Below are positions 3,304 to 59,394 of a stretch of DNA of 64,000 bases, one piece after another. Under the pieces are notes generated by a model. The model searched no databases, was not told where the DNA came from, and worked only from the letters and a program-made list of their open reading frames with translations. Origin of the DNA: an uncultured Candidatus Saccharibacteria bacterium (GTDB lineage: Bacteria > Patescibacteriota > Andersenbacteria > UBA10190); the NCBI GenBank assembly GCA_964610055.1, contig CAZSUC010000001.1, positions 216,867-280,866 on the forward strand. Reading direction: 5' to 3'. Made by a program: the position numbers and the translations under genes. Every line of letters begins with the position of its first letter. Within the stretch, counting starts at the first letter, position 1.

Positions 3304-3310
3304 TACATTC

Positions 3311-4207: not shown

Positions 4208-4294
4208 CTCTTCACTCCTTCATGTAAGTTGTCAAAAGAGCACTACTAAATTAGTAGTCATCAAAAATATACATAAAATTTACGAAAAGTCAAG

Positions 4295-4376
4295 TGCCGG
4301 GGACAGGAATCGAACCTGCATACCTTACGGTACATGGTCCTAAACCATGCGCGTCTACCAATTTCGCCACCCCGGC
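4295..4376 (-). tRNA. tRNA-Leu (anticodon TAG), type II with long variable arm
   Basis: Reverse complement reads GCCGGGGTGGCGAAATTGGTAGACGC...TTTAGGA...GGTTCGATTCCTGTCCCCGGC(A). Cloverleaf with a 7-bp acceptor stem, GTTCGATTCC T-loop, anticodon loop TT-TAG-GA. CCA not encoded. Confidence 0.85.
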
Positions 4377-4532
4377 TACTACTACCCTTATATCCTAGCT
4401 GAATTTTGCAAAAATGCACGCTATTACACCCTAAAAAACAATTATTGACAATAAAATCACATAATGTATACATTAAAACAGCCCAATAAAGGGCGTTTCT
4501 TTCTCAACTCAACCCAAGCCAAGGAGATTGCG

Positions 4533-41624: not shown

Positions 41625-42206
41625 CTACTTCGCGAAGTGATGAGAAGACGGTTTGTTCCGGTACCCATACCGTGGTACAGGTTGTGCAGGACGGGCTGTA
41701 CGTTGCGGAATCTCGGTTATAGGCGCCATGCCTTGGAAGACACGGCACAACGGCAATTCAGAGACGATGCCCTTGCGCACTGTCAGCAACGAAGGGTGTT
41801 TGCGTCCATCGTTCGGTGACTTCCGCTTCCATTGGCGCTGCCAATTCTTCGTCTCGGGTGTTGGCGGCGTAAAAATGTAATTCCATAAATAGTAATCCGC
41901 CAGAATGTACAAAATGGAACAGCGGGGAAATCCCGGCTTTCCCTCCACCCGCTCCAACCGCACGCCGAAGTATCCCGCCAATTGAGTATTTGAGGTAATC
42001 GAATCCGGTAACTCCGAATTATTAGCTTGCGGTTTGAACTGGTGGTCAATGGCCTTCCAAAGCAGTTTAGCCTGTTCCAGAGCACAGCCGTATCCAACCA
42101 GCTCCTGAACGAACGCCTCCTGTTCATCAGGAGAATGCGCGTAATGACCCAACCGATCAGCCGCTTGAGTCATTTGGTTCACCAAAACCGGCAGATCCGA
42201 ATACAT
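41625..42206 (-). CDS. hypothetical protein encoded on a high-GC islet
   Basis: 193 aa ORF. The local sequence is visibly GC-richer (mid-50s % by eye) than its neighbours. No motif recognised. Confidence 0.35.
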   Translation of the reverse strand: MYSDLPVLVNQMTQAADRLGHYAHSPDEQEAFVQELVGYGCALEQAKLLWKAIDHQFKPQANNSELPDSITSNTQLAGYFGVRLERVEGKPGFPRCSILYILADYYLWNYIFTPPTPETKNWQRQWKRKSPNDGRKHPSLLTVRKGIVSELPLCRVFQGMAPITEIPQRTARPAQPVPRYGYRNKPSSHHFAK

Positions 42207-42762
42207 TGGTCGTCTCCTAACAAGGTGACAAAGAACAACCCAGCTCGTCCTTCTAAAGATCCATATCTTTAGGCGCTGGTGAGAAAAACTTTTCTCTCAT
42301 CATCCGCCCAAAACTAAAATCTCCTGGGATGAGCCAGGAGATGTGTAATCTAGTTAATATCTTTAAATATTCTTACAAACTTCCTGGCTGAATGCAGATG
42401 AGCGGACATGCAATAGGGTAATAAACCAAGCTGCCATTGCCGCACGGTTATACAAACGCTTAGTTGTGCTATTACCTAACATAAATTCATCATAATGTTT
42501 TTAACATTAGTGTCAAATTAAATTTGACTTAAACGCAATAAATATGTTAAACAATAATCACATGCAATTATTTAGTTACCAAAATAATCAGAAAGTTTCT
42601 ATGCACTTTCGTGCCGGACGTCTTTTGTTTGCCCAAGGTAGCTTAAATAGCCCAATACTCAGATAAATTATTTTTTCTCTAATTAACTACCTTGGCCAAA
42701 CAAAGCCAAGGTAGTTTTGTTTTCGGCCTTATGTACCTTTAACTCAAAAAGGAGCCCACTAA

Positions 42763-43949
42763 TGATCCACGTGAACTACAACATTCCTAAATTGTACTTG
42801 CTGTACGCTTTCCAAAGCATGTCTTTTTGCTCTGGCTTGATCATTCCTTTTGTCATTGCTAACCACGTCACTCTCGATGAATTCTTTTTGCTTCAGTCTC
42901 TTTATTCTTTAGCTGTATTTATCTTAGAAGTGCCATCCGGATACGCGTCAGACATTTGGGGTCGCAAACCAACCATCATGATCTCTGGTCTTGCTGGGAC
43001 AGCTGGCAGTTTTTTGTATGCCTTAGGCACCAATTTTTGGCACTTTCTTGTCGCCGAATTGCTTTTAGCTATTCTTTGGAGTTTCCAATCTGGTACTCTT
43101 GACGCTTTGACTTACGAAACGCATCAAGAACTTAAGCTGAGCAATAGTCATTACGACTATGTTACTCATCGGCAAAAGTTTTTGAACTTTCTGTTTCAAG
43201 CCATTGGATCATTCATGGGAGGAATTGTCGCTTACTTTTTTGGCTTGCGCGTGGCGCTGTTATGTACGGCAGTGAGTTACAGTTTTGTTCCTCTGATCAC
43301 TTGGTCTCTTGTTGAGCCAGCTCGTCATACCCAAAAAGAAGCACAAGCCATCAAGGATATCTGGCGGGTTTGTTACCAAACGTTTCGGTTCAACGTTCCG
43401 CTGCGCAGCATTATCATGCTTTCTAGCGCCCTCGGAACCATGACTATGGGATTGGTTTGGTTGGGACAGGCTTACCAAGACGAGATTCACTTGCCTGTGC
43501 ATTGGTATGGATTCAGCAATACTGCAATCTTAAGCGCTACCGCTTTTGCTGTTTGGTGTTTGCCTAAACTCAAGCAACGTTTAGATGATCGTAAGTTGCT
43601 CATGGGCATTTCCGCAGTGATCCTTTTGAGCTACTTTGCCATCGGTCAAACGCTCTCAGTTTTTGGATTACTGTTCTTCTTGTTAGGTCGAGCTATGTGG
43701 GGCGCTCTGAGTGCTTTAAAAGTTACCATGATGCAACCTCTCATTCCATCGCATCGACGCGCTACAGTACTCTCCTTTGAAAGCTTACTTGGTCGCCTTA
43801 TATTTGCTGCTGCATCTCTGTTTATGGGTGCCTTAGCACAATCGGGCGGAGTGAGTATTACAGCTACTGTCATTGCTACCATTGGTACGATTATTGTAGT
43901 CAGCATCTTTCTCGCCATGCGGCCGATCTGGCGCCAGCTGCCCTCCTAA
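42763..43949 (+). CDS. MFS transporter
   Basis: About 12 predicted TM helices with a G..G.SD.WGRKP-like loop (GYASDIWGRKP) after TM2. The start was moved from the track's 42717 to ATG 42763, which has AAAGGAG 7 nt upstream. Confidence 0.7.
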
Positions 43950-45504: not shown

Positions 45505-46008
45505 ATGCTTAACGTTAAACCTTTCCAGGAGACTTTGCACGGTGGCTATTGTGGTCCAGCAAGCCTAAAAATGGTCTTAAACTATTACGGCCGAGATAAA
45601 AGCGAAGAAGAGATAGCTGTGCAATGCAAACGCGACCCCGATCTTGGCACTACCGATATTGCTCTTAAACAAGTCGCCGAAAACTATGGATTTGAAGTAA
45701 TTATCCAAGATAAAGCCTCGTTTGATGACCTAAAGCACTGGTTAGACCGAAAAGTACCTGTAATCGTTAATTGGTTTACTCGCGGTCGTTCGAACTATTC
45801 AGACTCTGAAGTTCCTGACGGTCATTATTCTGTCGTCATCGGTTTAGACGCTAACAACATCTATCTCCAAGACCCGGAAATAGGGAATATACGCACTATC
45901 AGCCGGGATAATTTCCTAAAAGTATGGTTTGATTTCAAATCCAGCCACATCCAATCATGGGAAGATTTAATCCTCCGGCAAATCATCGCCATTTATCCTA
46001 AAGAGTAA
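45505..46008 (+). CDS. stand-alone peptidase C39-like domain protein
   Basis: HGGYCGPASLKMVLNYYG (catalytic Cys context) plus downstream His (DGHYSVVIG) and Asp (QDPE), typical of the C39/C39-like papain fold. Confidence 0.6.
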   Translation: MLNVKPFQETLHGGYCGPASLKMVLNYYGRDKSEEEIAVQCKRDPDLGTTDIALKQVAENYGFEVIIQDKASFDDLKHWLDRKVPVIVNWFTRGRSNYSDSEVPDGHYSVVIGLDANNIYLQDPEIGNIRTISRDNFLKVWFDFKSSHIQSWEDLILRQIIAIYPKE

Positions 46009-46024
46009 TAAAATTGTTCATCAT

Positions 46025-46420
46025 ATGAAAAAAGAAAGCGTTGGTATTCTGATTACAAATAAAGCCGGAGAATACCTTTTACAAATGCGAGATGGAACCC
46101 CTGGTATTTGCAACCCTTTACGCTGGAACTTTTTTGGCGGTCGACGCAATAATCTCGAAGAAATTATTTCCGGAGCTATGCGTGAGTTATCTGAAGAATT
46201 AGATATTATTGCGAATTCAGAAGAATTCAAAATTCTTGGGGACATTATTTTTCCTGACGGTGAGTTTTACACTCTTACTCAATATTTGAAACCAATAACT
46301 TGGCGCGATTTCAGTGTTAATGAAGGCGCTGGAGCAGCTTTTTTTACGAAGCAAGAGCTAGAACAAATTAACATTACCGAAAAAACCAAACTACTAATCC
46401 ATAAATTTATTATTGGATAA
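46025..46420 (+). CDS. NUDIX hydrolase
   Basis: Nudix box FGGRRNNLEEIISGAMRELSEELDI. Confidence 0.7.
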   Translation: MKKESVGILITNKAGEYLLQMRDGTPGICNPLRWNFFGGRRNNLEEIISGAMRELSEELDIIANSEEFKILGDIIFPDGEFYTLTQYLKPITWRDFSVNEGAGAAFFTKQELEQINITEKTKLLIHKFIIG

Positions 46421-46423
46421 ATA

Positions 46424-46876
46424 ATGTTAACATGCGTTTTTGAAAACGGAGACGAAGCATCACTGCGACATGCAGTCGTGCAAGGAATTGTGCTAAATCA
46501 GGATAACCAACTCATGCTTATTAAGCGGGCAGTCAACTTGATTGAAGGAAGTAAATGGGCCTTACCGGGTGGTTATGTTGAGCGCGATGAAACGCTTCCC
46601 GAAGCTCTTACACGGGAAGTTAAAGAAGAAACTGGTTGGGAAATTAAAAATATAAAACTCATTAGTATTTACGATAATCCTAATCGCCCTCGTGAAGATC
46701 GACAAAACATCGCCTTTAACTACATCTGTCTGGCTACTAAGCAAACCGGTCAACATGACCATGAAGTTACCGCAACGCACTGGTTTTCTTTAACGGATCC
46801 AGTCGTTAAGAACCTCGCTTTTGATCATTCTAATGCAGTCAATGATTTTATTAGCCAAAAAAATATTCGTGACTAA
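46424..46876 (+). CDS. NUDIX hydrolase
   Basis: Nudix box LPGGYVERDETLPEALTREVKEETGW. Confidence 0.8.
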   Translation: MLTCVFENGDEASLRHAVVQGIVLNQDNQLMLIKRAVNLIEGSKWALPGGYVERDETLPEALTREVKEETGWEIKNIKLISIYDNPNRPREDRQNIAFNYICLATKQTGQHDHEVTATHWFSLTDPVVKNLAFDHSNAVNDFISQKNIRD

Positions 46877-46981
46877 AATATGGCAATTGCACCGTTTGGC
46901 CTAATTCAGCAAGCATACCAATTAAAATTTTTAATAAGCACTCCAATAACATTGATCATTTAGTAAACGATATTATTAACT

Positions 46982-47563
46982 ATGCCAAAATCTAAAGAAA
47001 TCAAACCTTGGAAACTAATTAACTCCGAAATGGTTTTAGATGAAAAATGGTACCGTGTTCGTAAAGATACTGTCGAAGTCCGCCCAGATCGAATTATTGA
47101 CGATTACTACATCGGTCTTTTCAATGACATTGTTTTAATCCTTGCTCTTACTCCGGACAATAACGTTCCTCTGGTGCGTCAATATAAACATAGAGCCGGG
47201 GAAATCCTCTTAGAACTCCCGGCTGGTTACATGGATCCAGGCGAAGAACCGCTGCATGCCGCTCAAAGAGAATTGCAAGAAGAAACTGGGTTTACTGCTA
47301 AAGATTGGCAATATTTTGGTTGTTTCATCTCAAACTCCGCTAAATCAAAAGGGAATAATGTTCATATTTTTCTTGCGCGCAACGCTGTTCAAACTCACTC
47401 GCAAAACCTAGATCCTAACGAAGACATCGAAATTGTTACTATTCCTTTTCAAGATGCCATTAAAAAAGCTCTTAATCATGAAATCAAAGGCAGTGATAGT
47501 GTTTTGGCTCTCCTTCTAACTGAAAAACAGAAAAAATCAATTTACCGCCACGCGCAAAAATGA
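46982..47563 (+). CDS. NUDIX hydrolase (ADP-ribose pyrophosphatase-like)
   Basis: Nudix box LPAGYMDPGEEPLHAAQRELQEETGF with an N-terminal NudF-like extension. Confidence 0.8.
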   Translation: MPKSKEIKPWKLINSEMVLDEKWYRVRKDTVEVRPDRIIDDYYIGLFNDIVLILALTPDNNVPLVRQYKHRAGEILLELPAGYMDPGEEPLHAAQRELQEETGFTAKDWQYFGCFISNSAKSKGNNVHIFLARNAVQTHSQNLDPNEDIEIVTIPFQDAIKKALNHEIKGSDSVLALLLTEKQKKSIYRHAQK

Positions 47564-47907
47564 AAGGCGACACCAAGCAATTATAGACTCAGCCAGGTGT
47601 CACAACTCAAATAGACTTCTTTTTCTTCGCGCAAAACACCAAGATTAATCCAGGGACTTCCAACAAATTACAACACTATGAAGGTATCACAGAAGCGCGC
47701 TTTTTCTCAAAAGACAAGATATTTACCGTGATTCGCCAAGGAGATATCACTCATGGTCAAACGTTAACAGGTATCTTTTTAGCGCATTTAAAAGGCAAGA
47801 TTTAAAAACGGATATAATCTAATCATTATTTACTTGCCCAATACAAACGCTTCATTCCCAGCTTTCTTAATTGGCGCAAGCTATCCAATTAATGTTATTT
47901 TAATCTT

Positions 47908-49149
47908 ATGAACGACAATTTATCACAAAAATTAACTGCAACCTCAAACAAGACCGGCGAGCCAAAACCGGTTTTTTTTGACCTCAGTTCTAATGCAGAC
48001 CAATCCAAACTCGAGGATCTGTTAGAAAAAAATCCTCATACAAAAATTGTTGATACGTATGATACGCAGTTGCTCGAATCTTTTGTTCTAGATCATCCAG
48101 CTTTACACATTAATCATCCTGAACGTGATCGTCAGTTTAAAGATTACCGCGATCAGCATTATGGTACCCAAGAAGCTTGGCAAGCCGGTAAATGGGTTTA
48201 TCTTCCTTGGAGACACATCTTGCTCCATATTCTAGACGATGCTTCGTATCAAAAAGTTCGCACCGGGCGTAACCGTAACCTTATTACTGCAGCTGAACAG
48301 GACAAGTTTTATAACAGTACTATCGGTATCGGTGGTCTGTCGGTTGGTAACAGTATCGTACTGGCTATTGTTTTAAGCGGTGGGGGAAAGCATATGAAAT
48401 TGGCTGATCCAGATACTTTGGAACTAACAAATCTTAATCGCATTCGCGGTAGCATATCCGAACTCACTGAGCCAAAAGTATATATGACTGCTCGACAAAT
48501 TTACGAGCTTGATCCTTATGCGGATCTGACTCTCTACACCGACGGGATTACTGAAGACAATATTACTGATTTCTTTACCGGTTTAGATTTGGTTATTGAT
48601 GAAATAGATAATCTAGGAATCAAAATTCGTATCCGTCAGCATGCTCAAAAAAATCGTATCCCAGTAGTGATGGCAGCTGACAATGGAGAAGGAGGCATTT
48701 TAGACGTTGAACGACATGACAAAGAAGACAATATCCCATATTTTCATGGTCGAGCTGGCCAAGACATTGAAGATCGCGTTTTAAATCAACATTTACCTCT
48801 ACCTTTAATTGGTAAGGTAATTTGTGAAGAACTTATTGGCTACGATATGACCGATGAACGAATGCAACAGTCTGTCTTGCAGATTGGCCAAGAAATTCCT
48901 ACTTGGCCTCAATTAGGAGCCGCCGCTCTCTTAAATGGAGTTGCTGTTGCTGGTACCGTTAGGCGTATTTTAAATAATCAGCCCGCCGTTAATGATAGAG
49001 CTGATTTGCGTATGAGTGCTTGGCTTGATCCTTATTACAATGATCCTGAGCAAGCCGAACAACGCCGCCGCAATACCGAAAAATTCGGTAAGGCTTACGA
49101 TCAGAATATCGAACAGTTTCTAAAAATGATGCAAAAGAAACTTAACTAG
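47908..49149 (+). CDS. ThiF/MoeB/E1-like adenylyltransferase family protein with long N-terminal extension
   Basis: Rossmann GxGxxG (IGIGGLSVGNSIVLAI), followed by a DPD...L.NLNR arginine-finger region and a DxxD-like block (LVIDEIDN). Confidence 0.6.
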   Translation: MNDNLSQKLTATSNKTGEPKPVFFDLSSNADQSKLEDLLEKNPHTKIVDTYDTQLLESFVLDHPALHINHPERDRQFKDYRDQHYGTQEAWQAGKWVYLPWRHILLHILDDASYQKVRTGRNRNLITAAEQDKFYNSTIGIGGLSVGNSIVLAIVLSGGGKHMKLADPDTLELTNLNRIRGSISELTEPKVYMTARQIYELDPYADLTLYTDGITEDNITDFFTGLDLVIDEIDNLGIKIRIRQHAQKNRIPVVMAADNGEGGILDVERHDKEDNIPYFHGRAGQDIEDRVLNQHLPLPLIGKVICEELIGYDMTDERMQQSVLQIGQEIPTWPQLGAAALLNGVAVAGTVRRILNNQPAVNDRADLRMSAWLDPYYNDPEQAEQRRRNTEKFGKAYDQNIEQFLKMMQKKLN

Positions 49150-50299
49150 CACCTAAAATTACCTCAACTTTCTCTACATCATCCGGACTTAACGCAAAAT
49201 GAGCTCGTAAATAACCCGTATCAGCACTCCCAGGCCTAAAGAAAGGAATACCAGGCGCCACCGCGATGCCTTTATCTAATAGCTCCTGCATCGCTGCCAT
49301 ATCACTGGCGCGATTATGTTTTACCATCATGTAATAAGCCCCCTGCGGCGACACTGGTTCCATGCCATATTTCTCAAAAGCAGCCATAATTCTTATTCGA
49401 TTATTTCGATATTGTCCCACTAAATCTGACACAAACCGATCTAATTGGTTGCTTTCTGTTTGCCATAAGTCTGCTAAAATCAATTGCGCTGGCGCTGGTG
49501 CACCTACGTATAAAGCCTCATGAATATGCGTCATATTAGCCCGTCGTTCAGGAGCAGTTATCGCATATCCTGTTCTCCAGCCAGCTAAGGCTAAATTCTT
49601 GGAAAAACTCCTACAGATTACTAAGTGGTTTAAATCGGAAGCTAAACTTAAAAGGGAAGTATAATCATTTTCCCAAATAAAATCTTGATAAACCTCATCC
49701 ATTACTAGCAGCACATTATTACGAACACATAAATTGTACAATTTTTCTAAATCATCCTTATCAATCACTGTGCCTGTCGGATTAGCTGGATTTCCAATTA
49801 ATAATGCCTTGAGCCCCGGGATTTTTTGGCCAATAGTTTCCCAGTTCAATTTAAATTCAGTATTGTAGGGAATGTATTCCGTAACCGCTTGAATAGCTTG
49901 AATGGCCCAATTATGAGCTGGATAAAAAGGCTCCAACAAGCCTACTTTATCGCCGGGAGCGCATACTGTTCTTAAAGCAGAAACTACTCCACCTGTTACT
50001 CCATTAGTTGCCATTACTTCCTCTAAAGTTAAGTCAGCTCTTTCTCTTTGCAAGCGATTTAATAGTGCTGCTCTATATTCCTTATATCCTGCTGGAGAAG
50101 CATAAGTATGCATTCGGCGCTCTTTAAACCTCTCATTTAATTTATCCAAGAAAATCTTAGGTGGGGCAGTATGAACTACTCCTTGCGCCATATCAATTGC
50201 TCCAGCTTCAACTGCCATGTCGGCCATTTCTCGGCCTGTTGGTAAATGCGTCCCGTTATTTTTAATCATCAAAACCTTGGCATCGATAACATTTTTCAT
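49142..50299 (-). CDS. PLP-dependent aminotransferase (class I/II, AAT fold)
   Basis: SFSKNLALAGWRTGY (PLP-lysine block), NPANPTG, and a C-terminal R for substrate carboxylate. Confidence 0.85.
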   Translation of the reverse strand: MKNVIDAKVLMIKNNGTHLPTGREMADMAVEAGAIDMAQGVVHTAPPKIFLDKLNERFKERRMHTYASPAGYKEYRAALLNRLQRERADLTLEEVMATNGVTGGVVSALRTVCAPGDKVGLLEPFYPAHNWAIQAIQAVTEYIPYNTEFKLNWETIGQKIPGLKALLIGNPANPTGTVIDKDDLEKLYNLCVRNNVLLVMDEVYQDFIWENDYTSLLSLASDLNHLVICRSFSKNLALAGWRTGYAITAPERRANMTHIHEALYVGAPAPAQLILADLWQTESNQLDRFVSDLVGQYRNNRIRIMAAFEKYGMEPVSPQGAYYMMVKHNRASDMAAMQELLDKGIAVAPGIPFFRPGSADTGYLRAHFALSPDDVEKVEVILGAS

Positions 50300-50322
50300 A
50301 AGCTAAGGATAGCTCCATTTTC

Positions 50323-50356
50323 GCCCAATAAAAAGCGGCAGGTGATACCCGCCGCA
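50323..50356 (-). terminator. rho-independent terminator closing the RiPP operon
   Basis: Minus-strand GCGGCGGGTATCACCTGCCGC hairpin followed by TTTTTATTGGG. Lies between the small membrane-protein gene and the aminotransferase start. Confidence 0.5.
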
Positions 50357-50381
50357 TAAACCACCTGGATTTCATGCTGCT

Positions 50382-50657
50382 TTAGCCGAAAAGCCAGGGG
50401 ACCAGAGACCAGAAAGCCCAATGTGCCATGTAACCGATGCCACACATCAGCAGGGTTACAACCGTGACGATCATCCAAAGAGGAGTCTGGAATGGCGCTG
50501 CAAAATCAACGGATTCACTGGGCGCACTTGTCTCTAAGTTCGCATGCGGCAACAGGCCATCCCGAGCGCGGGACTCCCACGCAATCTTGCTAGGAGTCTC
50601 ACTGTCATTCCTGTGATTTTGATCCGCACCAACATCGTAAGAACTCCCGTGCATCAC
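50382..50657 (-). CDS. small membrane protein (2 C-terminal TM helices); candidate immunity/export accessory
   Basis: 91 aa with a hydrophilic N-terminus and a C-terminal WMIVTVVTLLMCGIGYMAHWAFWSLVPWLF. It is the last gene of the operon and has higher GC than the host background. Confidence 0.4.
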   Translation of the reverse strand: MMHGSSYDVGADQNHRNDSETPSKIAWESRARDGLLPHANLETSAPSESVDFAAPFQTPLWMIVTVVTLLMCGIGYMAHWAFWSLVPWLFG

Positions 50658-50796
50658 ATAACCCTCCTAAAAAGGACAAAATCACACAACCTACTACTAA
50701 TCAAAAATTACAGTCAATAACACAAAATTACAACCATGCCGTGTCAATTGTTCTTAACACGCAGATTCAAACTTAATTAACAATAGGTTGGTAATT

Positions 50797-51471
50797 CTAA
50801 AAAATTTCCTCTGCTTTGACCTCCACAATTGCCGCCGGATTCTTAATATTCCGTTTCGCCATATACTGCCGCACCATATCATACCCCAGCGAATACCCAG
50901 TCCACTTTTTTATACCGTTCCCCCCGTAAAACCAATCATCGCGGTTAAAATCTTCAGACTTCAAGATCGGTTTTGCTTTTTTCCAAATCAGACTCAACTC
51001 CTGACTATCAAGATTATGAGCATACGGCACATCAATATCAGAATACATAAATTCCTCAAACATTGACGGCAATCCCTCGTCAACTAACGCCTCACCCAAT
51101 GTTTTTGCTACTGGCCAAGTGGCATATCGTCTAGCATGGCACATCTCATGGGCAATTGCTGATGGCATCCATTGTTTTACATTATGAATTATCCCATTTT
51201 TATGTTTTGGGTCTATAAAAATTAGAATTGTATCTGCTTCGCCGCACCGGCCTCCTACACCCTGCTCCGGAATAGTCGCAAATTTATCCGCATAAACCAA
51301 AATATTACACTCCTTAAGATTAAGCCATTTATTACAGTCAGTCACAGCCTCTCGCGCCACTTCTAAAACATTAGCCGCATCTAGCACTTCCGCATCTTGA
51401 TCATGTATCCGGTACATTAAATGGATATAAATTTTACTGCTAGTTATCTTGTATGAGAATTTTGTGAGCAT
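50797..51471 (-). CDS. putative Zn-dependent metallopeptidase (HExxH; DUF2268-like?)
   Basis: SAIAHEMCHARRY contains HEMCH with a downstream Glu (VDEGLPSMFEEF). Immediately downstream of the precursor gene in the same orientation. Confidence 0.5.
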   Translation of the reverse strand: MLTKFSYKITSSKIYIHLMYRIHDQDAEVLDAANVLEVAREAVTDCNKWLNLKECNILVYADKFATIPEQGVGGRCGEADTILIFIDPKHKNGIIHNVKQWMPSAIAHEMCHARRYATWPVAKTLGEALVDEGLPSMFEEFMYSDIDVPYAHNLDSQELSLIWKKAKPILKSEDFNRDDWFYGGNGIKKWTGYSLGYDMVRQYMAKRNIKNPAAIVEVKAEEIF

Positions 51472-51490
51472 ACCACCGTATGATCATAGG

Positions 51491-51526
51491 ATTAATAAAA
51501 GGGCCGACTGTATAGGAGCCGGCCCA
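51491..51526 (-). terminator. intra-operon partial terminator/attenuator immediately after precursor gene
   Basis: Minus-strand GGGCCGGCTCCTATACAGTCGGCCC hairpin followed by TTTTATTAAT. Sits 17 nt after the precursor stop codon. Confidence 0.45.
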
Positions 51527-51542
51527 ACGCGGAGAGGATTGG

Positions 51543-51725
51543 CTAGCGGCTGCACTTACCGCCGCCGTTTGATCCGCCACCGCTGCACTTACCGCCGCCG
51601 TTTGATCCGCCGGCACATCCGTTTCCGCTTGCTTGCATCTCGCGGGTAGAAATACCGCGAGAATAAGCGAGCCGCGTCACCTTCAGTTGAGGAGACGCTT
51701 TTTTCGCAACCGTCTCTGACGGCAC
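51543..51725 (-). CDS. RiPP precursor peptide, microcin B17-like Gly/Ser/Cys/Asn-rich core (LAP/TOMM substrate)
   Basis: 60 aa: MPSETVAKKASPQLKVTRLAYSRGISTREMQAS | GNGCAGGSNGGGKCSGGGSNGGGKCSR. GTG start with AAGGAGGT 5 nt upstream. Lies 15 nt downstream of the YcaO gene. The core has 3 Cys, 4 Ser, 3 Asn and 14 Gly in 27 residues. Confidence 0.7.
   Translation of the reverse strand: MPSETVAKKASPQLKVTRLAYSRGISTREMQASGNGCAGGSNGGGKCSGGGSNGGGKCSR
51549..51611. repeat. perfect 33-nt direct tandem repeat (x2) inside precursor core
   Basis: GCTGCACTTACCGCCGCCGTTTGATCCGCC occurs at 51549 and again at 51582 (period 33). It encodes the duplicated core module GGSNGGGKCS. Confidence 0.85.
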
Positions 51726-51740
51726 AACGAACCTCCTTTC

Positions 51741-53603
51741 CTAATCCAAAGGGTGGACAGAAAATCTTAGAGGCACATCCTTAACTTCAACGACACGAGT
51801 ATGCGGGAGCTGGTTGAACCCAAACGTCAAAGGAACAAACCAGGGACTCAGGAGCCGCACCACCCTCAATCCCTGTACCTCACCATACGCAACCGAGTAC
51901 AGCGCGTCAACACCTAATTGTCGACACACTTTGACAACGTCGGCGCTTTCAACAACCTCTTCGGAAAAGCAAGGCTTCGTTAACTCTGACTCTGAAAAAG
52001 TTGTTGAAGACCACAAAAAAGAAGCTGAAACCAAGTTTTCAGGATTGTTAAACCAGCACGCATGGTCATCTGGCGTCCTAACGTCCTGTAAGGCAATTCG
52101 CGGCTTTTCTTCCATGTGCATTGCCGGATCCAGTAACCGGCAAAACAATCCTACCTCAGCTTCTTTCCAAGCACTCAGCAGTGCTTCTTGGACAGTGTTG
52201 CGCGCAGCTGCGCCGCAAATCATCGCCGGCCAATTGTTTCTCCGCAAGACTACTAGCATCGTGGGTACGATAGTCTTGGATATATCAAGGAAATCCACCT
52301 GATATCCAAGTGACCGCACCTTATCGCATTCCGCGACGAGGTCTCGGGGAATCATGCACTCAGACAATCGTGACGGAGGCTGGCGAAAAATCCAGGTTTT
52401 CATGAACGCATCGCGTTCAATGAGCTCTAATAGCGCCGAAAACTGCGCTTTCGCAACAGACATTCCAGCAGCCATACCAGAAGAGTTCGCCCAACGGCAT
52501 CTTTGCTTGTAAGAATGCGGTTGGAAAGGGTAGTAACACAAATCAGCAAGAATCCGCACTTCCTGACCAGTTATAACACTAATGGCATTGCGCCAATAGT
52601 ATTTGCAATCTGGTTTAAAAGGGCGCAGCTCCGCATCCTCGCATTGGCTACCAGTCAAGTGATACAGGGAATCGGGGTCAATCCGATTTTTGCTTCCATG
52701 CAATGACCCATATTCAAGTCCATGAGTATTGTATTTTCCAGCCGCATGCCTCTCCAAAGCTTCTGCGGACGAAACCAAATGCGCTGTGAGCCTATCCCTG
52801 TGCGCGCCACTTGCGACTGGATTACGTCTCCCGTCCCATTGTCCTTTTTGGCGATAGCGAGACATAACTATCGCCACAGACGGAGAAAATCCCGTGGACA
52901 AATCTGTGATTACAGATTGCTGAACCACAGAGCCAAATGGACCACAATAATGCCAATTCCCAACATCAATCCAATTAACTGTGCGCTCGCGGACACTAAT
53001 CTCGCATAGGCATTCATCCTCCGCTAACAAAGAGACAATCGTACTAGCAAGCCACTTACACGTGTCATGCTCAATAAAATTTTCTCCAGGAATAACTACC
53101 TCGCCCGTGTTCCAGAAAAGAGGGCGTGCCCTATCTAGCCAAACGCCAGCAAACGCCCACTCAATCAGCCGCTTAGCCAGAAGCTTTTGCTGTCGTGGTT
53201 TAGATAGCTTGGCCAACAGGTAAAGAGGGCCAAACCGGAAGCCTAAACCATAGCATTTCCCAGTTTTATTAAAAACTGGGAAATGCTGAAAAATTGGCAA
53301 ACCCGAGCAATTCTCTGCGATGTGCCAGTCAAGTCGATCAGGAGGTTGGGTATCCAAAACCCAGACTTGCTCTTGAATCAACAATGACCATAGCGACATC
53401 ATTTTTTCTGGGGGAACATTGCTTTGTTCAGCAAAATTCCAGACAATTACTTGATCAAGCAGGCCATTCTTATAACCTGCACACGCACGTAACAAGTGCG
53501 AGACCTGAGCATCAGCAATGGAAACCTCGTTCTGTAGACTTACGAACTCGGCCCGGTCACTCAGAAAAAACAGATCATATGTAGGGTTAAACCTAACAAT
53601 CAT
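51741..53603 (-). CDS. YcaO-domain cyclodehydratase (TOMM SagD/McbD-type) with ~230 aa N-terminal extension
   Basis: YcaO signature RWANSSGMAAGMSVAKAQFSALLELIERDAF (ATP/Mg-binding S...E..ER motif) and downstream conserved blocks. The N-terminal ~230 aa has no Rossmann motif and is a possible leader-binding/E1-like docking domain. Confidence 0.85.
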   Translation of the reverse strand: MIVRFNPTYDLFFLSDRAEFVSLQNEVSIADAQVSHLLRACAGYKNGLLDQVIVWNFAEQSNVPPEKMMSLWSLLIQEQVWVLDTQPPDRLDWHIAENCSGLPIFQHFPVFNKTGKCYGLGFRFGPLYLLAKLSKPRQQKLLAKRLIEWAFAGVWLDRARPLFWNTGEVVIPGENFIEHDTCKWLASTIVSLLAEDECLCEISVRERTVNWIDVGNWHYCGPFGSVVQQSVITDLSTGFSPSVAIVMSRYRQKGQWDGRRNPVASGAHRDRLTAHLVSSAEALERHAAGKYNTHGLEYGSLHGSKNRIDPDSLYHLTGSQCEDAELRPFKPDCKYYWRNAISVITGQEVRILADLCYYPFQPHSYKQRCRWANSSGMAAGMSVAKAQFSALLELIERDAFMKTWIFRQPPSRLSECMIPRDLVAECDKVRSLGYQVDFLDISKTIVPTMLVVLRRNNWPAMICGAAARNTVQEALLSAWKEAEVGLFCRLLDPAMHMEEKPRIALQDVRTPDDHACWFNNPENLVSASFLWSSTTFSESELTKPCFSEEVVESADVVKVCRQLGVDALYSVAYGEVQGLRVVRLLSPWFVPLTFGFNQLPHTRVVEVKDVPLRFSVHPLD

Positions 53604-54630
53604 CCATAGTCTCCTCCAGGCGACCAGCTAAAACGACAGTAAGAGGCACAACGCCATCTAACAGGTTAAGAACAGCGGACAACTCACGATCAAAAAACCC
53701 ACCAACTTCTACACAACCCAAGCCACACTCAGCACAAAAAATTTGCAAATTTTGTGCTGCATGACCGGCTTCAAGAATAGTGTAGCGATAACCGCGATCA
53801 CCATACTTCCTACACACGAATGGCACATCACCACTGATCACAAAACATGCCCCGCAAGTATCTACATAAGTGTCTTTCATAAAGCAACCATGAAAGGCAG
53901 TAGTATCTTGCCATTTAGTCAGCAGATGAATGTCATGGGTGTAAGAATACACTCCGCTGTCAAGTCCAGGCGACGGTGTTGTAACAAGAACATGCAGCAT
54001 AAGCGGATAGAGAGCGCCAGCTGACGGTATCGTACGGCGTAATAAACCGCAAGACTCCCAAGCAAACGATCCTACCACCCCGCATGCAGACCAACACAAA
54101 TCCCTAACCTCCTGGCGCTTGAGAGGCGCCCCAGTAAACTGACGAGACGTGCGTCGACTACATAATAACTTCGCAAAGGGGGTCGTCGGCACCGGCAGAA
54201 AGCCTCCTACAGGCTGCCTTTTCTGCACTTCGTTGTACAAATTGTTCATCTCATCGTCAGACAGCCTCTTAAAAAGAGGCATGGGATTGTTGCCGTATGC
54301 ATGAAATGCACGCCAGCATTCCTGGGCATCTACTAACGCTCCGCTACTTTGTAACAACTCAACCAGTGACAAAATTGACGGAAGTGGGTATGAGCAAGAA
54401 AGAACCTCAATAATCTCATGTAACTCGTAGTAGCCGGAACAATAACGCAACAAATCCCGCTGAAGCTGAACGTCACATTCAACTACTATGACTTCCTCGG
54501 GAAGGTAATACCGCATAGAGGAAATACAGTTATCAACGTAACAAGTAACCCTAGGGCGCCAAGAAAGGCTCATCAGAAGTTTCTCCTTATAATTGTCAAA
54601 GAACTGTCCAAAACGACGACAATCAATCAT
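53593..54630 (-). CDS. SagB-type FMN-dependent dehydrogenase (McbC-like azoline oxidase, nitroreductase fold)
   Basis: N-terminal SagB-specific extension followed by a nitroreductase core (LLCSRRTSRQF; AGALYP; RYTILEAGHAAQNLQIFCAECGLG). Overlaps the YcaO gene by 11 bp. Confidence 0.8.
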   Translation of the reverse strand: MIDCRRFGQFFDNYKEKLLMSLSWRPRVTCYVDNCISSMRYYLPEEVIVVECDVQLQRDLLRYCSGYYELHEIIEVLSCSYPLPSILSLVELLQSSGALVDAQECWRAFHAYGNNPMPLFKRLSDDEMNNLYNEVQKRQPVGGFLPVPTTPFAKLLCSRRTSRQFTGAPLKRQEVRDLCWSACGVVGSFAWESCGLLRRTIPSAGALYPLMLHVLVTTPSPGLDSGVYSYTHDIHLLTKWQDTTAFHGCFMKDTYVDTCGACFVISGDVPFVCRKYGDRGYRYTILEAGHAAQNLQIFCAECGLGCVEVGGFFDRELSAVLNLLDGVVPLTVVLAGRLEETMDDC

Positions 54631-54825
54631 TCACTATTATTGCTCTATAAGCAAATTAAACCTGTCAATCAAAACTGACAAACAAAAAACCAATTTTTTG
54701 CCACAAGGCTATTTACATGTTCAAAACCCAGTATAAACTAATCCCCCAAAACCAGCTAAAATAGGCATGGTTTCCAGCATCGGGTTTATCGTGCGTATCC
54801 TAGCTGTTTTTATTAACCCTCGTGT

Positions 54826-55447
54826 ATGACCTATCAACATTTCACCGTCGAGGAACGAGAAACAATTCAACTCGGACTTTGGCAGAGGGAGTCGATCAGT
54901 TCCATCGCAAAACGTCTGGGACGCTCAGCCTCGTCCGTCAGTCAAGAGATTAAGAGGAATCTGTACCTCAAGCGTCGCTGGTCACCAGAACAGATTGCGG
55001 GTCGCATCAAGCGTGACCTCGGCGAGACTATTTCTCACGAAGCAATTTACTAATTCATCTACTCCTAGGTGTATCGAGAAGGCCATGGGTATGTGAAGCC
55101 AGCTCATTAAGACTTGCGGCCATACCTACGCCGACGCCGTAAGCGACGCCTTGCTCGCGGTAGCCGTTGTTGCCAGCGAGTGCCGCGACCAAAAACACCC
55201 TCACGGAACGGCGGACCGGTAAGCTCTTCATTATGAAATTGCCTGACCGAACAGCGGCGAGTACCGCCACCGCGGTGACGAGCCATCTGGAGCATCTGCC
55301 ACAGAGACTACGACGGACCCTCACCAGATGAGCTGGCGCATGTCGAAGCCGAGCTCAATGACCGGCCGCGCAAACGGCTCGGTTATTTAACCCCTAACGA
55401 AGCTATAGGGTGTTGCACTTCGAGGTTGAATCTACCGGAGACACGTT
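54826..55447 (+). pseudogene. IS30-family transposase remnant (N-terminal HTH plus C-terminal tail, DDE core deleted or scrambled)
   Basis: The 75-aa ORF MTYQHFTVEERETIQLGLWQRESISSIAKRLGRSASSVSQEIKRN...WSPEQIAGRIK...ISHEAIY matches the IS30 Tnp N-terminus. At 55330..55447 another frame reads DELAHVEAELNDRPRKRLGYLTPNEAI, the typical IS30 C-terminus. The middle ~270 bp is GC-rich with no intact frame. Confidence 0.55.
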
Positions 55448-55475
55448 TGTCTAAAAACATGTATTATGACACCAT

Positions 55476-57077
55476 ATGAATATGAAAAATATTCCGTTTC
55501 CAGTACCAACCATTCCTGTAGAAAGTAAAAATCAGGATTCAAAATATTCGTATAAATATGCTCACAAAATTTATAAAGAATATTTTAATTTTCCGATCAA
55601 AAAAGCAAGGCAGACCCTAGAAGATACTTCGCCCGCAGATTGGAATAAGAAGGGCAAGGTGCAAGCATTAAACGTATTTCAAGCCGCTGCCCATCGCGTC
55701 CCAGCATATAAAGACTTCTTAAAGAAACATAAAGTTAATCCAAGCACCATCACCTCTGTATCTGATTTCGAAAAAATTCCAGTCATTGATAAAGAATCCT
55801 ACCTAAAACATTATCCCGTAGAACAGCTATGCTGGGACGGGATTTTTACTAATGGTAATATAATTTCAGTATCCTCTGGGTCTTCTGGAAAACCATTTTT
55901 ATGGCCTCGAGAAATCGGTCTTGAATTAGAAGTAACTTATTTTTTTGAACTTATTTTAGATTCGTTCTTTCATATTTCTAGTCACAAAACTCTATTAGTG
56001 GATTGTTTTGCTATGGGGATGTATGTAGGGGGACCGTTTGTATTAAATACAACCATGCGTATATCGCAAAAAGGCTACCCCATATCAATTGTTACTCCAG
56101 GGAATGTTATGGAGGATATTCTGCGCGTGGTTAAGGAACTCGGACCTCAGTATGAACAAGTTATATTATCCGGATACCCGCCTTTTATTAAGGACATTAT
56201 TGATAAAGGCAGAAAGATTGGAATCGATTTTAATTCTTTTAAAACAATTATATTTCCAGCAGGCGAAGGTTTCTCTGAATCATGGCGCAGTGCAGTTGCA
56301 GAAAATGCCAATATTCAAGATCCTGTTAATAGCCTCTTAGGATATTATGGTACTGCTGATGCTGCGGTTATGGGAGCAGAAACTCCTTGGTCTGTATTGA
56401 TACGTAAAGCTGTATCGCGAAATATAGAAAATATTGAAAAAATATTTGGAGAATGTCGCATGCCATCAGTTCTGCAATATATTCCGACGCTACGTTATTT
56501 TGAATTAATAAACGAGGAACTAGCCTTTACAGCCGCTAACGGATGTATACCTTTAGTGCGTTACAATATAAGAGATAAAGGAGGGCTATGGAAATTTACC
56601 GATGCACATAAAAATCTCAAACAAATAGGAGTGTCATATCAGGACGAGTTAGATCAAAATTCCAAATATGGTAAACCATGGCAATTGCCATTCGTTTATG
56701 TATTTGGGCGCAGTGATCAAACTGCTATTATCTACGGCGCTAATGTTTATCCTGAACACATCAAAATGATTCTTGAAAGTAAGGAATTGGCTGGCTACTG
56801 TTCTGGGCGTTTTGTTCTTGATACAGAAGAAGATCATTCGCATAATCAACATCTTATCTTGCATTTAGAATGTCATGCTCACGTTCAACGCAATAATGAT
56901 TTGCGAGACTACTTAACAAAAACTGTTTTTAAAATGCTCAAAAATATTAACGCAGAATACGCAAATTCCGCTAAAGCTAACGGGTCAAAAGCCATTCCTA
57001 AGATTTTCTTACAAGAATACGAAGATTCTCATTATTTTGCTCGAGACAAAAAGCAGCAGTGGAAGCTTAAAAAGTAA
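55476..57077 (+). CDS. PaaK/CapK-like adenylate-forming enzyme (phenylacetate-CoA ligase / F390 synthetase family)
   Basis: P-loop-like VSSGSSGKPFLWP in the ANL superfamily position, 533 aa, and a YGTADAA-like block. Very low GC, unlike the adjacent island. Confidence 0.55.
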   Translation: MNMKNIPFPVPTIPVESKNQDSKYSYKYAHKIYKEYFNFPIKKARQTLEDTSPADWNKKGKVQALNVFQAAAHRVPAYKDFLKKHKVNPSTITSVSDFEKIPVIDKESYLKHYPVEQLCWDGIFTNGNIISVSSGSSGKPFLWPREIGLELEVTYFFELILDSFFHISSHKTLLVDCFAMGMYVGGPFVLNTTMRISQKGYPISIVTPGNVMEDILRVVKELGPQYEQVILSGYPPFIKDIIDKGRKIGIDFNSFKTIIFPAGEGFSESWRSAVAENANIQDPVNSLLGYYGTADAAVMGAETPWSVLIRKAVSRNIENIEKIFGECRMPSVLQYIPTLRYFELINEELAFTAANGCIPLVRYNIRDKGGLWKFTDAHKNLKQIGVSYQDELDQNSKYGKPWQLPFVYVFGRSDQTAIIYGANVYPEHIKMILESKELAGYCSGRFVLDTEEDHSHNQHLILHLECHAHVQRNNDLRDYLTKTVFKMLKNINAEYANSAKANGSKAIPKIFLQEYEDSHYFARDKKQQWKLKK

Positions 57078-57102
57078 GATGTTTTGTAATACGATGTAGG
57101 TA

Positions 57103-59394
57103 ATGTTTTCCCTCATTGCCTTTCTAAGCACTACGCTTATTAATTTAACTTTAGCAACGCTGGTTATTCGCCGTAACCCACGTAGTGCGACTCATCGTTT
57201 TTTTAGTGCTCTTACTTTTTCTTTTGCCATCTGGGCAACTGCTAACTACATTTCTTTTACAACTTCAAATCCAATTATTTCCTTATGGATGGTAAGACTA
57301 GTAATGGCATCCGCTATTGCCCAGTCTTATTTTTTTATGCTATTGCTGGGAACATTTCCAAAATCATCTTTATCGGTTAACAAGATATTCTTAACTTGTA
57401 TTACTGCTTTGGCTGCATTAGCTTTTGTGGTTTGCCTCTCTCCTTTGCTCATTGATTACGTGCAATTAGGAGTAAAGGCCACTCCTGTAACACACTATAG
57501 TTTTGGCATGGCTCTGTTTTTACCGACTGCCTTTGGTTGTCTTGGTACTGGAGTGATATGGATCATTCGCCGAAATCTCAAAGCTGAATCTATAGAAAAA
57601 GTTCAACAACGATATTTAATTGCTGGATTACTGATTACTTTTTCTTTGTTTGTAGGTTTAGCTTTAATTCCAACTATTGCATTCAACAATACATCGTTTA
57701 TACCCCAAGCCCCGTTATTTACAGTCCCATTTGCTATTTTAACAGCCTACGCAATATACAAGCATCGTCTTATGGATGTTCGTTTAGCTCTCGCCAGAAG
57801 CCTTTCCTTCTCTTTTCTTGTTGGTAGTTTTCTTGTTGTTTACGGTCTCATATTTATTTTTGCTGTTCCTATACTATCTGATATCTTAGGTGTTCAAGAA
57901 GGAATTATTGCTGCTGTCGGTGCTCTGTTTAGCATTCCTATCGCTCGTTGGATTAGGGGTATCTTGCGTCGTGTTACTGACCGCTTTCTTTTTCAGCAGC
58001 AAGCTAATTACAGAATAGCCCTAGTAAGTATTAGTCGTATTTTATCCGGAACTATTAACATTGAAGAAGTTACAGATACTCTTCTTAATGCTGCTTCTCA
58101 GGTTATTCGATCCCAAAAAACAATTATTTTTCTTCGCGATAAAGATGGTCAACATTACCAGCCACGCGCTGCTAGTCGCAGTACACGCTTAAATACTGTT
58201 ATTAATCTTGATCATCCTTTAATTCGTCATCTTCAACATTCAATAAGTCCAGTCGTCAAAGACGAAATATCAGTGATGCACGAACAAACAAATCAGCCTA
58301 GTCGTATTCAAGAGTTAGAATCTGTTCAAAAAGCCATGGAATGGTTAGATGCTTTCGTGCTCGTACCATTATTCGTTGATAAAGAATTAACAGGATTTAT
58401 CCTCTTAGGTGAAAAACTCACCGGAGAACCTTATTCTAACGACGACATCGAATTCTTAGCCGCCCTTGCCCCTCAGGCTGCTACCACTCTTGAAAATGCT
58501 CGCCTCTATAAAGAATCCTTGGAATTCGGCAAGAAACTGCAAGAAGAAGTTGATGCCGCCACCAAAGAACTCAAATTTGCTAATGAACAGCTCAAACAGA
58601 TTGATCAGGCTAAAAGCGAGTTCCTAAGTATCGCCAGTCATCAGCTATACACGCCTCTAACCGCTATCCGTGGCTACCTTTCCATGTTGTTAGAAGGGGA
58701 CTTTGGTAAAATCTCCAAAGAACAACAGCCTATTATCGACATTCTGATGCAAAGTGCAATGCGCCTCATTGAGCTTATTAAAAGCCTGTTGGATGTTTCG
58801 CGCATTGAAAGCGGTCGGTTAGAGCTCAAGTTAACCTCGGTTGATTTTGTGGAAATGGCGCGTAATATGGTTCAAAATCTCATGCCTAATGCGCAGGCCA
58901 AGAAATTAAACCTATCTTTCCATGAGCCGTCCAAAAAAGTTACTCATGTTGTCGCTGATTCCGAGCGCATCCGTCAGGTCGTCTTAAACTTCATCGATAA
59001 TGCCATTAAATACACTGATAAAGGTCAAGTTGATGTCTATGTTAAGCCATCAGGTGACAACATTGTTTTTGAAGTAACTGATACTGGAAAAGGTATTACT
59101 GAAGAAGACATTCGCAAACTGTTCAACAAATTTAGTCGGGTTGGTGGGTCAGATAAATACCATACTGAAGGAACTGGTCTTGGTCTCTACGTCGCTAAAC
59201 AAATCGTTAACGAGCATCACGGCGATATTGAGGTTTCCAGTCCCGGTACAGGCAAGGGGAGCACTTTCACTATTCGTCTTCCTGCCGAAGGGTCACCACA
59301 AAGCCTAAAATTGGATCCTAATGCTGAATTCACCATTAAAAAAGCTGATCCGCATCCAGAACCAGTTGAAAACTCGCCATCCCCTCAAACCTAA
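57103..59394 (+). CDS. sensor histidine kinase with N-terminal 7TM region and GAF domain
   Basis: About 7 TM helices, a GAF-like middle region, HisKA H-box (SIASHQLYTPLTAIRGYLSML) and HATPase_c (DNAIKYT; DTGKGI; GTGLGLYVAKQIV). No adjacent response regulator. Confidence 0.85.
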   Translation: MFSLIAFLSTTLINLTLATLVIRRNPRSATHRFFSALTFSFAIWATANYISFTTSNPIISLWMVRLVMASAIAQSYFFMLLLGTFPKSSLSVNKIFLTCITALAALAFVVCLSPLLIDYVQLGVKATPVTHYSFGMALFLPTAFGCLGTGVIWIIRRNLKAESIEKVQQRYLIAGLLITFSLFVGLALIPTIAFNNTSFIPQAPLFTVPFAILTAYAIYKHRLMDVRLALARSLSFSFLVGSFLVVYGLIFIFAVPILSDILGVQEGIIAAVGALFSIPIARWIRGILRRVTDRFLFQQQANYRIALVSISRILSGTINIEEVTDTLLNAASQVIRSQKTIIFLRDKDGQHYQPRAASRSTRLNTVINLDHPLIRHLQHSISPVVKDEISVMHEQTNQPSRIQELESVQKAMEWLDAFVLVPLFVDKELTGFILLGEKLTGEPYSNDDIEFLAALAPQAATTLENARLYKESLEFGKKLQEEVDAATKELKFANEQLKQIDQAKSEFLSIASHQLYTPLTAIRGYLSMLLEGDFGKISKEQQPIIDILMQSAMRLIELIKSLLDVSRIESGRLELKLTSVDFVEMARNMVQNLMPNAQAKKLNLSFHEPSKKVTHVVADSERIRQVVLNFIDNAIKYTDKGQVDVYVKPSGDNIVFEVTDTGKGITEEDIRKLFNKFSRVGGSDKYHTEGTGLGLYVAKQIVNEHHGDIEVSSPGTGKGSTFTIRLPAEGSPQSLKLDPNAEFTIKKADPHPEPVENSPSPQT

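Follow-up and report, generated by a model that had tools for sequence, protein, structure and literature searches.

A predicted azol(in)e-peptide cassette, probably gained between two native genes, with a decayed IS30-family element at its right junction

We analysed a stretch of 64,000 nucleotides of contig CAZSUC010000001.1 (positions 216,867 to 280,866 of the forward strand), referred to below as the window and numbered from its first letter, in which a class I/II aminotransferase gene and a gene for a PaaK-like adenylate-forming enzyme are separated by more than 5 kb. The intervening segment, here called the insert, holds a small minus-strand gene cluster, assigned by its gene content to the linear azol(in)e-containing peptide, or thiazole/oxazole-modified microcin (TOMM), type, and, next to the PaaK-like gene, the remnant of an insertion sequence (IS) of the IS30 family. 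An earlier sequence-only reading of this DNA had proposed horizontal acquisition of the cluster followed by decay of the IS, and that course of events is supported by the composition of the segment, by five empty sites in relatives and by the dead state of the IS; in our judgement, the cassette was probably gained between the aminotransferase and the PaaK-like gene, with a since-inactivated IS30 copy at the right junction. The order of parts along the minus strand of the insert is spacer, SagB, YcaO, precursor, hairpin, DUF2268, orf91 and terminator, and the features of the locus are as follows (aa, amino acids; ORF, open reading frame; HTH, helix-turn-helix).

49142..50299, minus strand: class I/II aminotransferase, native left flank, outside the insert (PF00155, E 1e-54)
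50335..50355, minus strand: terminator-like hairpin at the left border of the insert, predicted to end the minus-strand cluster operon (GCGGCGGGTATCACCTGCCGC, then the T-run TTTTTATT; 9-bp stem, 7 G-C)
50382..50657, minus strand: orf91, orphan small protein with a hydrophobic C-terminus (from the ORF list; 53.6% GC)
50797..51471, minus strand: DUF2268 predicted zinc protease, putative leader peptidase (PF10026, E 4e-26)
51501..51525, minus strand: hairpin and T-run directly after the precursor stop, candidate attenuator (GGGCCGGCTCCTATACAGTCGGCCC, then TTTTATTAAT; 9 pairs, 7 G-C)
51543..51725, minus strand: 60-aa precursor peptide with the core GNGCAGGSNGGGKCSGGGSNGGGKCSR at its C-terminal end (ORF with a GGAGG ribosome-binding site)
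51741..53603, minus strand: YcaO cyclodehydratase, 620 aa, with an N-terminal extension of ~260 aa (PF02624, E 3e-36)
53593..54630, minus strand: SagB-type nitroreductase-fold dehydrogenase (PF00881, E 1e-14; TIGR03605, 75.2 bits against a cut-off of 78.4)
54631..54821, no strand assigned: AT-rich spacer of 190 bp, 36% GC, presumed promoter region of the cluster
54822..55436, plus strand: decayed IS30-family insertion sequence, 615 bp (homology to intact IS30 relatives)
54826..55053, plus strand: 75-aa ORF, HTH_38 DNA-binding N-terminus of the transposase with an in-frame 40-codon deletion (Pfam HTH_38)
55410..55436, minus strand: intact right terminal inverted repeat of the IS (repeat match; end of the homology to the intact copies L006 and L007)
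55476..57077, plus strand: PaaK-like adenylate-forming enzyme, native right flank (TIGR02155, E 1.5e-14, far below the cut-off)

The remnant belongs to the IS30 family. Pfam HTH_38 matches residues 3-45 of the ORF at 54826..55053 with an E-value of 3e-13, as expected from the transposase N-terminus that had been placed there from the sequence alone, and the same ORF is called as a gene in Logan contigs. With a frame-corrected translation of 54826..55428 as query, 2516 proteins match at E<=1e-5; the top phmmer matches (E 7e-75) are all 331 aa, and those that bear a name are called ‘IS30 family transposase’. Over the common aligned columns the remnant is 68-77% identical to five intact transposases. 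Two intact relatives score 255-263 bits on the NCBIfam model NF033563 (IS30 family transposase; cut-off 80 bits), as against 58.7 bits for the remnant, which falls below the cut-off because of its deletions. Its IS30-like peptides are dispersed over three frames: LKRRWSPEQIAGR...ISHEAIY, DLRPYLRRRRKRR, LTERRTGKLFIMKLPDRTAA...LPQRLRRTLT, and PDELAHVEAELNDRPRKRLGYLTPNEAI, the last followed by a one-base frame change, GVALRG and a stop codon.

As the DNA reference for the map of decay we used L007, a contig of 1050 bp that consists of one whole intact IS; the same ends are found within a longer contig, L006. Alignment to L007 places the changes as follows.

Start of homology: IS position 44, window 54822
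Deletion 1: 120 bp, in frame, IS 186-305, junction 54963/4
Deletion 2: 103 bp, IS 536-638, junction 55193/4
Deletion 3: 170 bp, IS 769-938, junction 55323/4
One additional base: window 55405
End of homology: IS position 1050, window 55436

What survives is IS positions 44-1050 minus 393 deleted bp. The columns that hold GDWEGD (D1), DNG (D2) and NEN (E) in the five intact relatives fall within deletions 2 and 3, so that all three catalytic residues have been lost; in addition, three sense codons of the relatives are stop codons here, and in all the reading frame is interrupted by three or more stops and shifted three or more times. To judge from these lesions, the remnant is a dead pseudogene, no longer able to transpose. 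The earlier description of an element without its DDE core was right as to the D, D and E residues, all of which are deleted, and overlooked ~360 bp of the IS middle (54964..55323) that are retained; the C-terminal tail, which it put near 55330..55447, is present with true limits of 55324..55436.

The two ends of the element have fared differently. The right repeat, GGTAGATTCAACCTCGAAGTGCAACAC, is the sole match to the consensus in 64 kb, with 0 expected, while the first 43 bp of the IS and its left repeat are absent: the intact IS, compared by blastn with all 64 kb, matches 54822..55436 only, and no left IS30 repeat or second IS fragment was found in the 64 kb with a degenerate pattern allowing 3 mismatches, with an 11-mer core or with blastn at word size 7. 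Of the IS30 repeats envisaged at both borders, therefore, the window holds the right one, intact, and no left one.

The IS also differs in composition from its intact relatives, with 54.5% GC against 59-60% in L007 and L006. At sites where both intact copies agree, the private changes of the remnant number 46 from GC to AT and 8 from AT to GC (p=1.4e-7), whereas those of the two intact copies number 30:15 and 28:21. This excess, together with the lower GC, points to an IS that came from a GC-richer background and has for some time been decaying toward the composition of its host. The cluster genes, at 47-48%, are still poorer in GC than the IS.

Homology to L006 and L007 stops exactly at 55436, and the similarity of two other contigs, L086 and L087, to the region upstream of the window's PaaK-like gene begins near 55445, ~8 bp right of the IS end; left of that point both are unrelated to the window, L087 having the end of a plus-strand gene and then a hairpin. 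Since the right repeat of the IS lies next to the start of this homology, we take it to be the physical right junction. The best promoter-like site of the PaaK-like gene is found at 55438..55467, its -10 element, TATTAT, falling in a stretch that is conserved in L086 and L087, and its -35 element, GAGACA, beginning 2 bp past the IS end, so that insertion of the IS may have replaced or altered the native -35 region.

The flanking genes belong to a conserved backbone. The PaaK-like protein has 2576 homologues at E<=1e-20, the few with a named organism being assigned to the Patescibacteria group, Candidatus Andersenbacteria and Saccharimonadales. Among the loci retrieved with it (2 from genomes and 75 from metagenomes), most of the longer metagenome loci have the PaaK-like gene adjoining a ThiF-like gene, usually with a GAF histidine kinase nearby, and in the nearest relatives with enough flanking sequence the order is ThiF, aminotransferase (on the opposite strand), PaaK and kinase. 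In the window, the ThiF-like gene is at 47908..49149 and the PaaK-kinase part at 55476..59394, and the same module is seen among loci L015-L074; the ThiF-like protein resembles the N-terminal half of the Rv1355c family, and the kinase is of the seven-transmembrane (7TM)-GAF type. The distance between the aminotransferase and PaaK-like genes varies as follows.

L004: 20 bp
L008: ~70 bp
L010: ~95 bp
L088: 100 bp
L011: ~170 bp
Window: 5176 bp

Presence of the cluster at this locus in all relatives would have refuted the sequence-only reading, and it is not what the relatives show: the aminotransferase/PaaK junction is free of the cassette in L004, L008, L010, L011 and L088. Aminotransferase orthologues 57-60% identical to that of the window adjoin the PaaK-like gene in L008 and L010, and an aminotransferase recognized by Pfam does so in L088. 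Two types of aminotransferase occupy the equivalent position, one 57-60% identical to the window protein (L008, L010) and the other 33-36% identical (L004, L011, L012, L084). The equivalent gap of L012 is filled with unrelated, unannotatable genes; we compared the 869-aa gene upstream of PaaK in this contig with an 825-aa gene upstream of SagB in L005, and the two are not homologous.

The insert stands out in base composition from the rest of the window, which was our only reference for the host. Its GC content (50300..55436) is 47.6%, compared with 41.9% for the remaining window; only 0.5% of 973 equal-length segments elsewhere reach this value, and all of them start at 1.7-1.9 kb (spanning 1.7-7 kb). 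Strand-symmetrised tetranucleotide frequencies in 4-kb windows correlate with those of the remaining window at 0.69 for 51-55 kb, where ~0.92 is typical; the correlation is 0.59-0.70 at 1-6 kb. Both measures speak against a uniform composition and agree with the sequence-only reading, which had called the segment GC-richer than its flanks and had put the PaaK-like gene at ~35% GC. The values for individual genes and regions, including the GC content at third codon positions (GC3), are as follows.

YcaO gene: 48.0% GC, GC3 0.47
SagB gene: 46.7% GC, GC3 0.44
DUF2268 gene: 41.0% GC, GC3 0.40
PaaK-like gene: 36.5% GC, GC3 0.29
orf91: 53.6% GC
Precursor region, 51472..51740: 57% GC
Spacer between SagB and the IS: 36% GC
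53 long ORFs of the window: mean GC3 0.354, sd 0.075

The aminotransferase has a background-like GC3 of 0.32. The insert is internally uneven, and the GC-rich stretch of 50.3-55.45 kb first described shrinks to a block at 51.47-55.44 kb plus orf91, with the DUF2268 gene (41%) and the spacer (36%) as exceptions; the 57% GC of the precursor region is probably due to a coding sequence rich in glycine. Taken as a whole, the contrast is of moderate size, and the window has others like it. A per-gene Karlin codon-bias test gave z=6.1 for YcaO, 5.2 for DUF2268 and 4.1 for SagB, but also 5.8 for the native aminotransferase, and it was set aside in favor of GC3 and symmetrised tetranucleotides because it is confounded by strand asymmetry, almost every minus-strand gene deviating. 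Plus-strand GC skew is negative over most of the window and the majority of genes lie on the plus strand, which makes nearly all minus-strand genes codon-usage outliers.

Two other parts of the window deviate as well. The segment 1..7000 (46-48% GC, tetranucleotide correlation 0.59-0.70) has four ORFs with no Pfam match (985-2013, 2146-3357, 4464-5492 and 5699-6193), one with a weak match to Band_7 (3311-4207) and a tRNA-Leu in its middle (4294..4376), and may be another acquired segment. At 41625..43949, a 193-aa ORF with the highest GC3 of the window (0.58; 52% GC; no Pfam match) adjoins a putative major facilitator superfamily (MFS) transporter with a GC3 of 0.47.

Homologues of the cassette are rare. 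A word-index search with YcaO covered 5.8 billion proteins, of which only the best 8000 word-sharing candidates were scored; among these, besides the genome's own protein, there was one at 50% identity (L005), six full-length ones at 39-43% and a partial one at 40%, with the rest at <=32%, so that full-length homologues above 30% identity amount to seven, all on similar metagenomic contigs. On TIGR03604 (SagD family) the window protein scores 123 bits, under the cut-off of 219. Searches of PDB sequences with YcaO and DUF2268 returned remote matches or none, with a best E-value of 6e-6. A five-part cassette order is common to the window, L005, L083, L084 and L085; in each of the other four, the gene after the precursor is 55-62% identical to DUF2268, and a homologous small ORF with GGSNGGGK[C/S] repeats occupies the position of the precursor. 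The core of the window precursor (51543..51640) contains a peptide unit, GGSNGGGKCS, that is repeated exactly and in tandem; L085 has a single GGSNGGGK-like unit, and the window, L005, L083 and L084 have two each; the length of the core appears to evolve by gain and loss of repeats. For orf91 there is no Pfam match, and tblastn returns only the identical Logan contigs.

A stand-alone C39/C70-type papain-like peptidase (167 aa) followed by three NUDIX hydrolase genes is located at 45505..47563, shortly before the ThiF-like gene. Cleavage of bacteriocin leaders is the usual role of C39 domains, and it is conceivable that this peptidase is linked with the peptide cluster 4 kb away.

Three of five YcaO/SagB/DUF2268 loci lie in the same ThiF/aminotransferase/PaaK/kinase neighborhood, namely those of L005 and L084 and the fused type of L008, while L083 and L085 hold the cassette in unrelated contexts. 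In L084, a 3′ fragment of a window-type aminotransferase (12875-13021; residues 306-354, 57% identical) comes right after DUF2268; a second aminotransferase, 36% identical, is present upstream of SagB. L008 has another type of cassette, a fused SagB-YcaO (734 aa) with DUF2268, which lies beyond the aminotransferase. This contig also has direct repeats of 342 bp (633-972 and 4881-5220; 81% identical), each encoding the first ~110 residues of a PaaK-like protein; they bracket 3.9 kb with the fused gene, DUF2268 and an ASCH-domain gene, and the aminotransferase and a full-length PaaK are found just beyond. These repeats look like the scar of a cassette exchange through PaaK 5′ homology, and the site as a whole looks like a variable hot spot. 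No PaaK-like 5′ fragments of the L008 kind were detected inside the insert of the window.

The presumed regulatory signals are of two kinds. Within 50.0-55.6 kb, the hairpins at 51501..51525 and 50335..50355 are the two strongest terminator-like sites; the total, 7 found against 6.3 expected, is not above chance, so that the case for 50335..50355 rests on its strength and on its position between orf91, which stops at 50382, and the aminotransferase, which starts at 50299. A terminator had indeed been noted at the left border, and this strong minus-strand hairpin is there. The second signal is a palindrome, TGTCA-N8-TGACA, upstream of SagB at 54663..54680, which has a single copy in the 64 kb, where 0.10 would be expected, and which recurs 93-138 bp upstream of SagB in L005 (5800-5817), L083 (554-571) and L085 (1572-1589); no exact copy was found in L084, despite the common gene order. 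The spacer upstream of SagB was also compared with those of L005 and L083-L085 for extended DNA similarity, and there was none, only the short palindrome. Versions with one mismatch are present at 50742..50759 and 51919..51936, all three matches with <=1 mismatch in the window being inside the insert. The palindrome is also found in L012 (4611-4628) and, twice, upstream of ThiF/PaaK genes in the distant relatives L070 (8533-8550, 8958-8975), L071 and L078. We regard it as a candidate operator, possibly for a response regulator that partners the adjacent histidine kinase.

The two borders have no common word of >=10 bases except a coincidental 10-mer at the start codons of the flanking genes, and there is no IS-like repeat at 50.2-50.9 kb, so the cargo is not bracketed by two IS copies. 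Pfam detects no integrase domain in the insert, and an Rfam scan of the window found five tRNAs and nothing else, the nearest tRNA being at 31.7 kb.

How did this arrangement come about? In the account that we consider probable, a cassette of ~4.5 kb would have entered between the divergently transcribed aminotransferase and PaaK-like genes from a related bacterium of similar or slightly higher GC, bringing its own promoter/operator region, SagB, YcaO, a Gly/Cys/Ser-rich precursor, DUF2268, orf91 and a terminator. One 1050-bp IS30 copy from a GC-rich background would have come to occupy the right junction, to be inactivated by loss of its left repeat and first ~43 bp, by three internal deletions and by stops and frameshifts; drifting toward the AT-rich composition of the host, it would now be a fossil that marks a recombination-prone junction. 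The data show the anatomy of the locus, the decay of the IS, the unusual composition and the empty sites; from them we infer a gain rather than multiple losses, and likewise the relatedness of the donor and the order in which IS and cassette arrived. A neighbor-joining tree of PaaK groups the window with L086 and L087, then with L088, L008, L009 and L004, and leaves L005, the only other genome with a cassette directly upstream of PaaK, outside; vertical descent at the site would therefore need at least three to four clean losses, as opposed to two gains. ‘Foreign’, the term originally applied to the segment, holds for its atypical composition and for the favored gain; its source, however, is likely to be a related lineage rather than a distant one, the rare homologues being on similar contigs. 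Several observations weigh against a gain. The relatives are distant (PaaK 42-58% identical; 45-58% in those with empty sites), and the closest ones, L086 and L087 (PaaK 75-77%), are contigs of 1.9-2.2 kb that end before reaching across the junction. Neither a target-site duplication nor a repeat at the flanks was detected, the IS having lost its left end. In L005, the block of SagB, YcaO, precursor and DUF2268 immediately precedes PaaK on the same strand, i.e. at the site used in the window but inverted, and L084 has a second-type aminotransferase, SagB, YcaO, precursor and DUF2268 with ThiF, PaaK and kinase within 5 kb; with two cassettes linked to the same neighborhood, the linkage could be old. 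The window background is heterogeneous, being GC-rich at 1-7 kb and 41.6-44 kb too, and YcaO and SagB have 44-48% GC in all genomes examined, whatever the GC of their flanks, so that the contrast may be partly intrinsic to the cluster genes.

These observations feed the most serious competitor, which we nevertheless consider rather unlikely: an old resident cassette, reshuffled by local inversions and deletions and repeatedly lost, whose GC is a property of its genes, and an IS30 that entered the intergenic region later and independently. This neighborhood holds like cassettes in L005 and L084, and the fused type in L008; pairwise identities among the three genomes with cassette and flank (window, L005 and L084) rank alike for PaaK (43% and 33%) and YcaO (49% and 39%), with no incongruence among them; cluster genes keep 44-48% GC in all hosts examined, and DUF2268 is compositionally native-like. 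Yet each of the repeated losses would have had to be clean, leaving the aminotransferase and PaaK 20-170 bp apart, the cassettes of L083 and L085 in unrelated contexts indicate that the cassette moves, and the GC3 of YcaO, 0.47 here, exceeds that of all orthologues (0.37-0.40) and the local background. Composite and fusion structures are known from the IS30 family, and the outer IS end makes an exact right junction with native sequence, which would suit a composite transposon or an IS30-mediated cointegrate whose second IS copy and left repeat were later deleted. Such a role as vehicle seems to us very doubtful: the single IS has no partner copy, repeat or fragment at the left border or elsewhere in 64 kb, no IS30 adjoins the cassette in L005, L083, L084 or L085, its GC (54.5%, 59-60% in relatives) is unlike that of the cargo (47-48%), and the 36% GC spacer with the cassette's conserved palindrome, its presumed promoter region, separates the IS from the cluster genes. 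A chimera of assembly or binning that joined a GC-rich segment from another organism would be in keeping with a metagenome-derived genome and with the frequent presence of IS elements at assembly break and join points, but it is hardly credible here. Logan assemblies of two runs (SRR8925775 and SRR8925805) yield contigs 100% identical to the window, one of which, L003, from a different run, covers 47686..56202 with both junctions included, and the decayed IS, of which there is only this copy, is no repeat that could mis-join contigs; the segment is not an assembly artefact.

A broader combination of these elements may be mentioned as speculative and unlikely. The region immediately upstream of PaaK would be a hot spot at which Patescibacteria exchange azole-peptide cassettes across the lineage, and the cassettes, each with its own operator, would plug into the regulon of the adjacent histidine kinase, as they may do given the palindromes upstream of ThiF/PaaK in distant relatives, and would move by homologous recombination via PaaK 5′ copies. 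The 75-aa HTH ORF and the right repeat, which lies 39 bp upstream of the PaaK start codon, would then be a domesticated repressor-operator pair.

An IS30 fossil and a small acquired segment are routine in genome evolution and matter mainly for annotation: the 75-aa HTH ORF should be labeled as a transposase pseudogene fragment, and the 5.1 kb treated as accessory. Both are of known kinds, and apart from the fact that reduced genomes rarely carry such clusters they are of modest interest. To judge by the organism names of the PaaK-like homologues, the host, whose longest contig measures 698,565 bp, appears to be an organism of the Patescibacteria type with a reduced genome, and genome surveys report biosynthetic clusters to be scarce in Patescibacteria. 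A deadwood metagenome study reported none in the six Patescibacteria genomes that it included (PMC11613949). Members of the cassette family are few, and its recurrence at varied positions in one neighborhood makes this a place to study the gain and loss of antibiotic-like functions.

Comparison with known systems places the remnant with IS30 of E. coli and the family defined by NF033563: it has the N-terminal HTH_38, the layout of HTH, LKRRWSPEQIAGR, DLRPYLRRRRKRR and C-terminal NDRPRKRLGYLTPNEA...GVALRG, and an imperfect ~27-bp terminal inverted repeat that overlaps the end of the ORF, and its intact relatives are 1050 bp long and encode a protein of 331 aa. Unlike functional members, the window copy is a pseudogene with D/D/E deleted and the left repeat missing. 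The cluster is like that of microcin B17 (mcbABCD) and other TOMMs in having YcaO, a flavin dehydrogenase of the SagB/McbC type, a protease and a short precursor with a glycine-rich core in which Cys and Ser follow Gly; the precursor presumably resembles McbA. It differs in that there is no separate McbB/E1-like partner, which the 260-aa N-terminal extension of YcaO may replace, no ABC (ATP-binding cassette) exporter or recognizable immunity gene in the insert, and a protease of the DUF2268 kind in place of TldD/E or a C39 domain; in sequence, it has very little in common with characterised systems (best PDB match, E 6e-6). With genomic islets the segment has in common an atypical GC and oligonucleotide content, a secondary-metabolite cargo, a mobile-element remnant at its edge and its absence in relatives. 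It is unlike them in measuring only 5.1 kb, with no integrase, tRNA target or flanking direct repeats, and in that the homologues of the cassette are confined to similar genomes, often in the same neighborhood. In this respect, it looks more like a product of within-lineage exchange at a variable hot spot than like a distant import.

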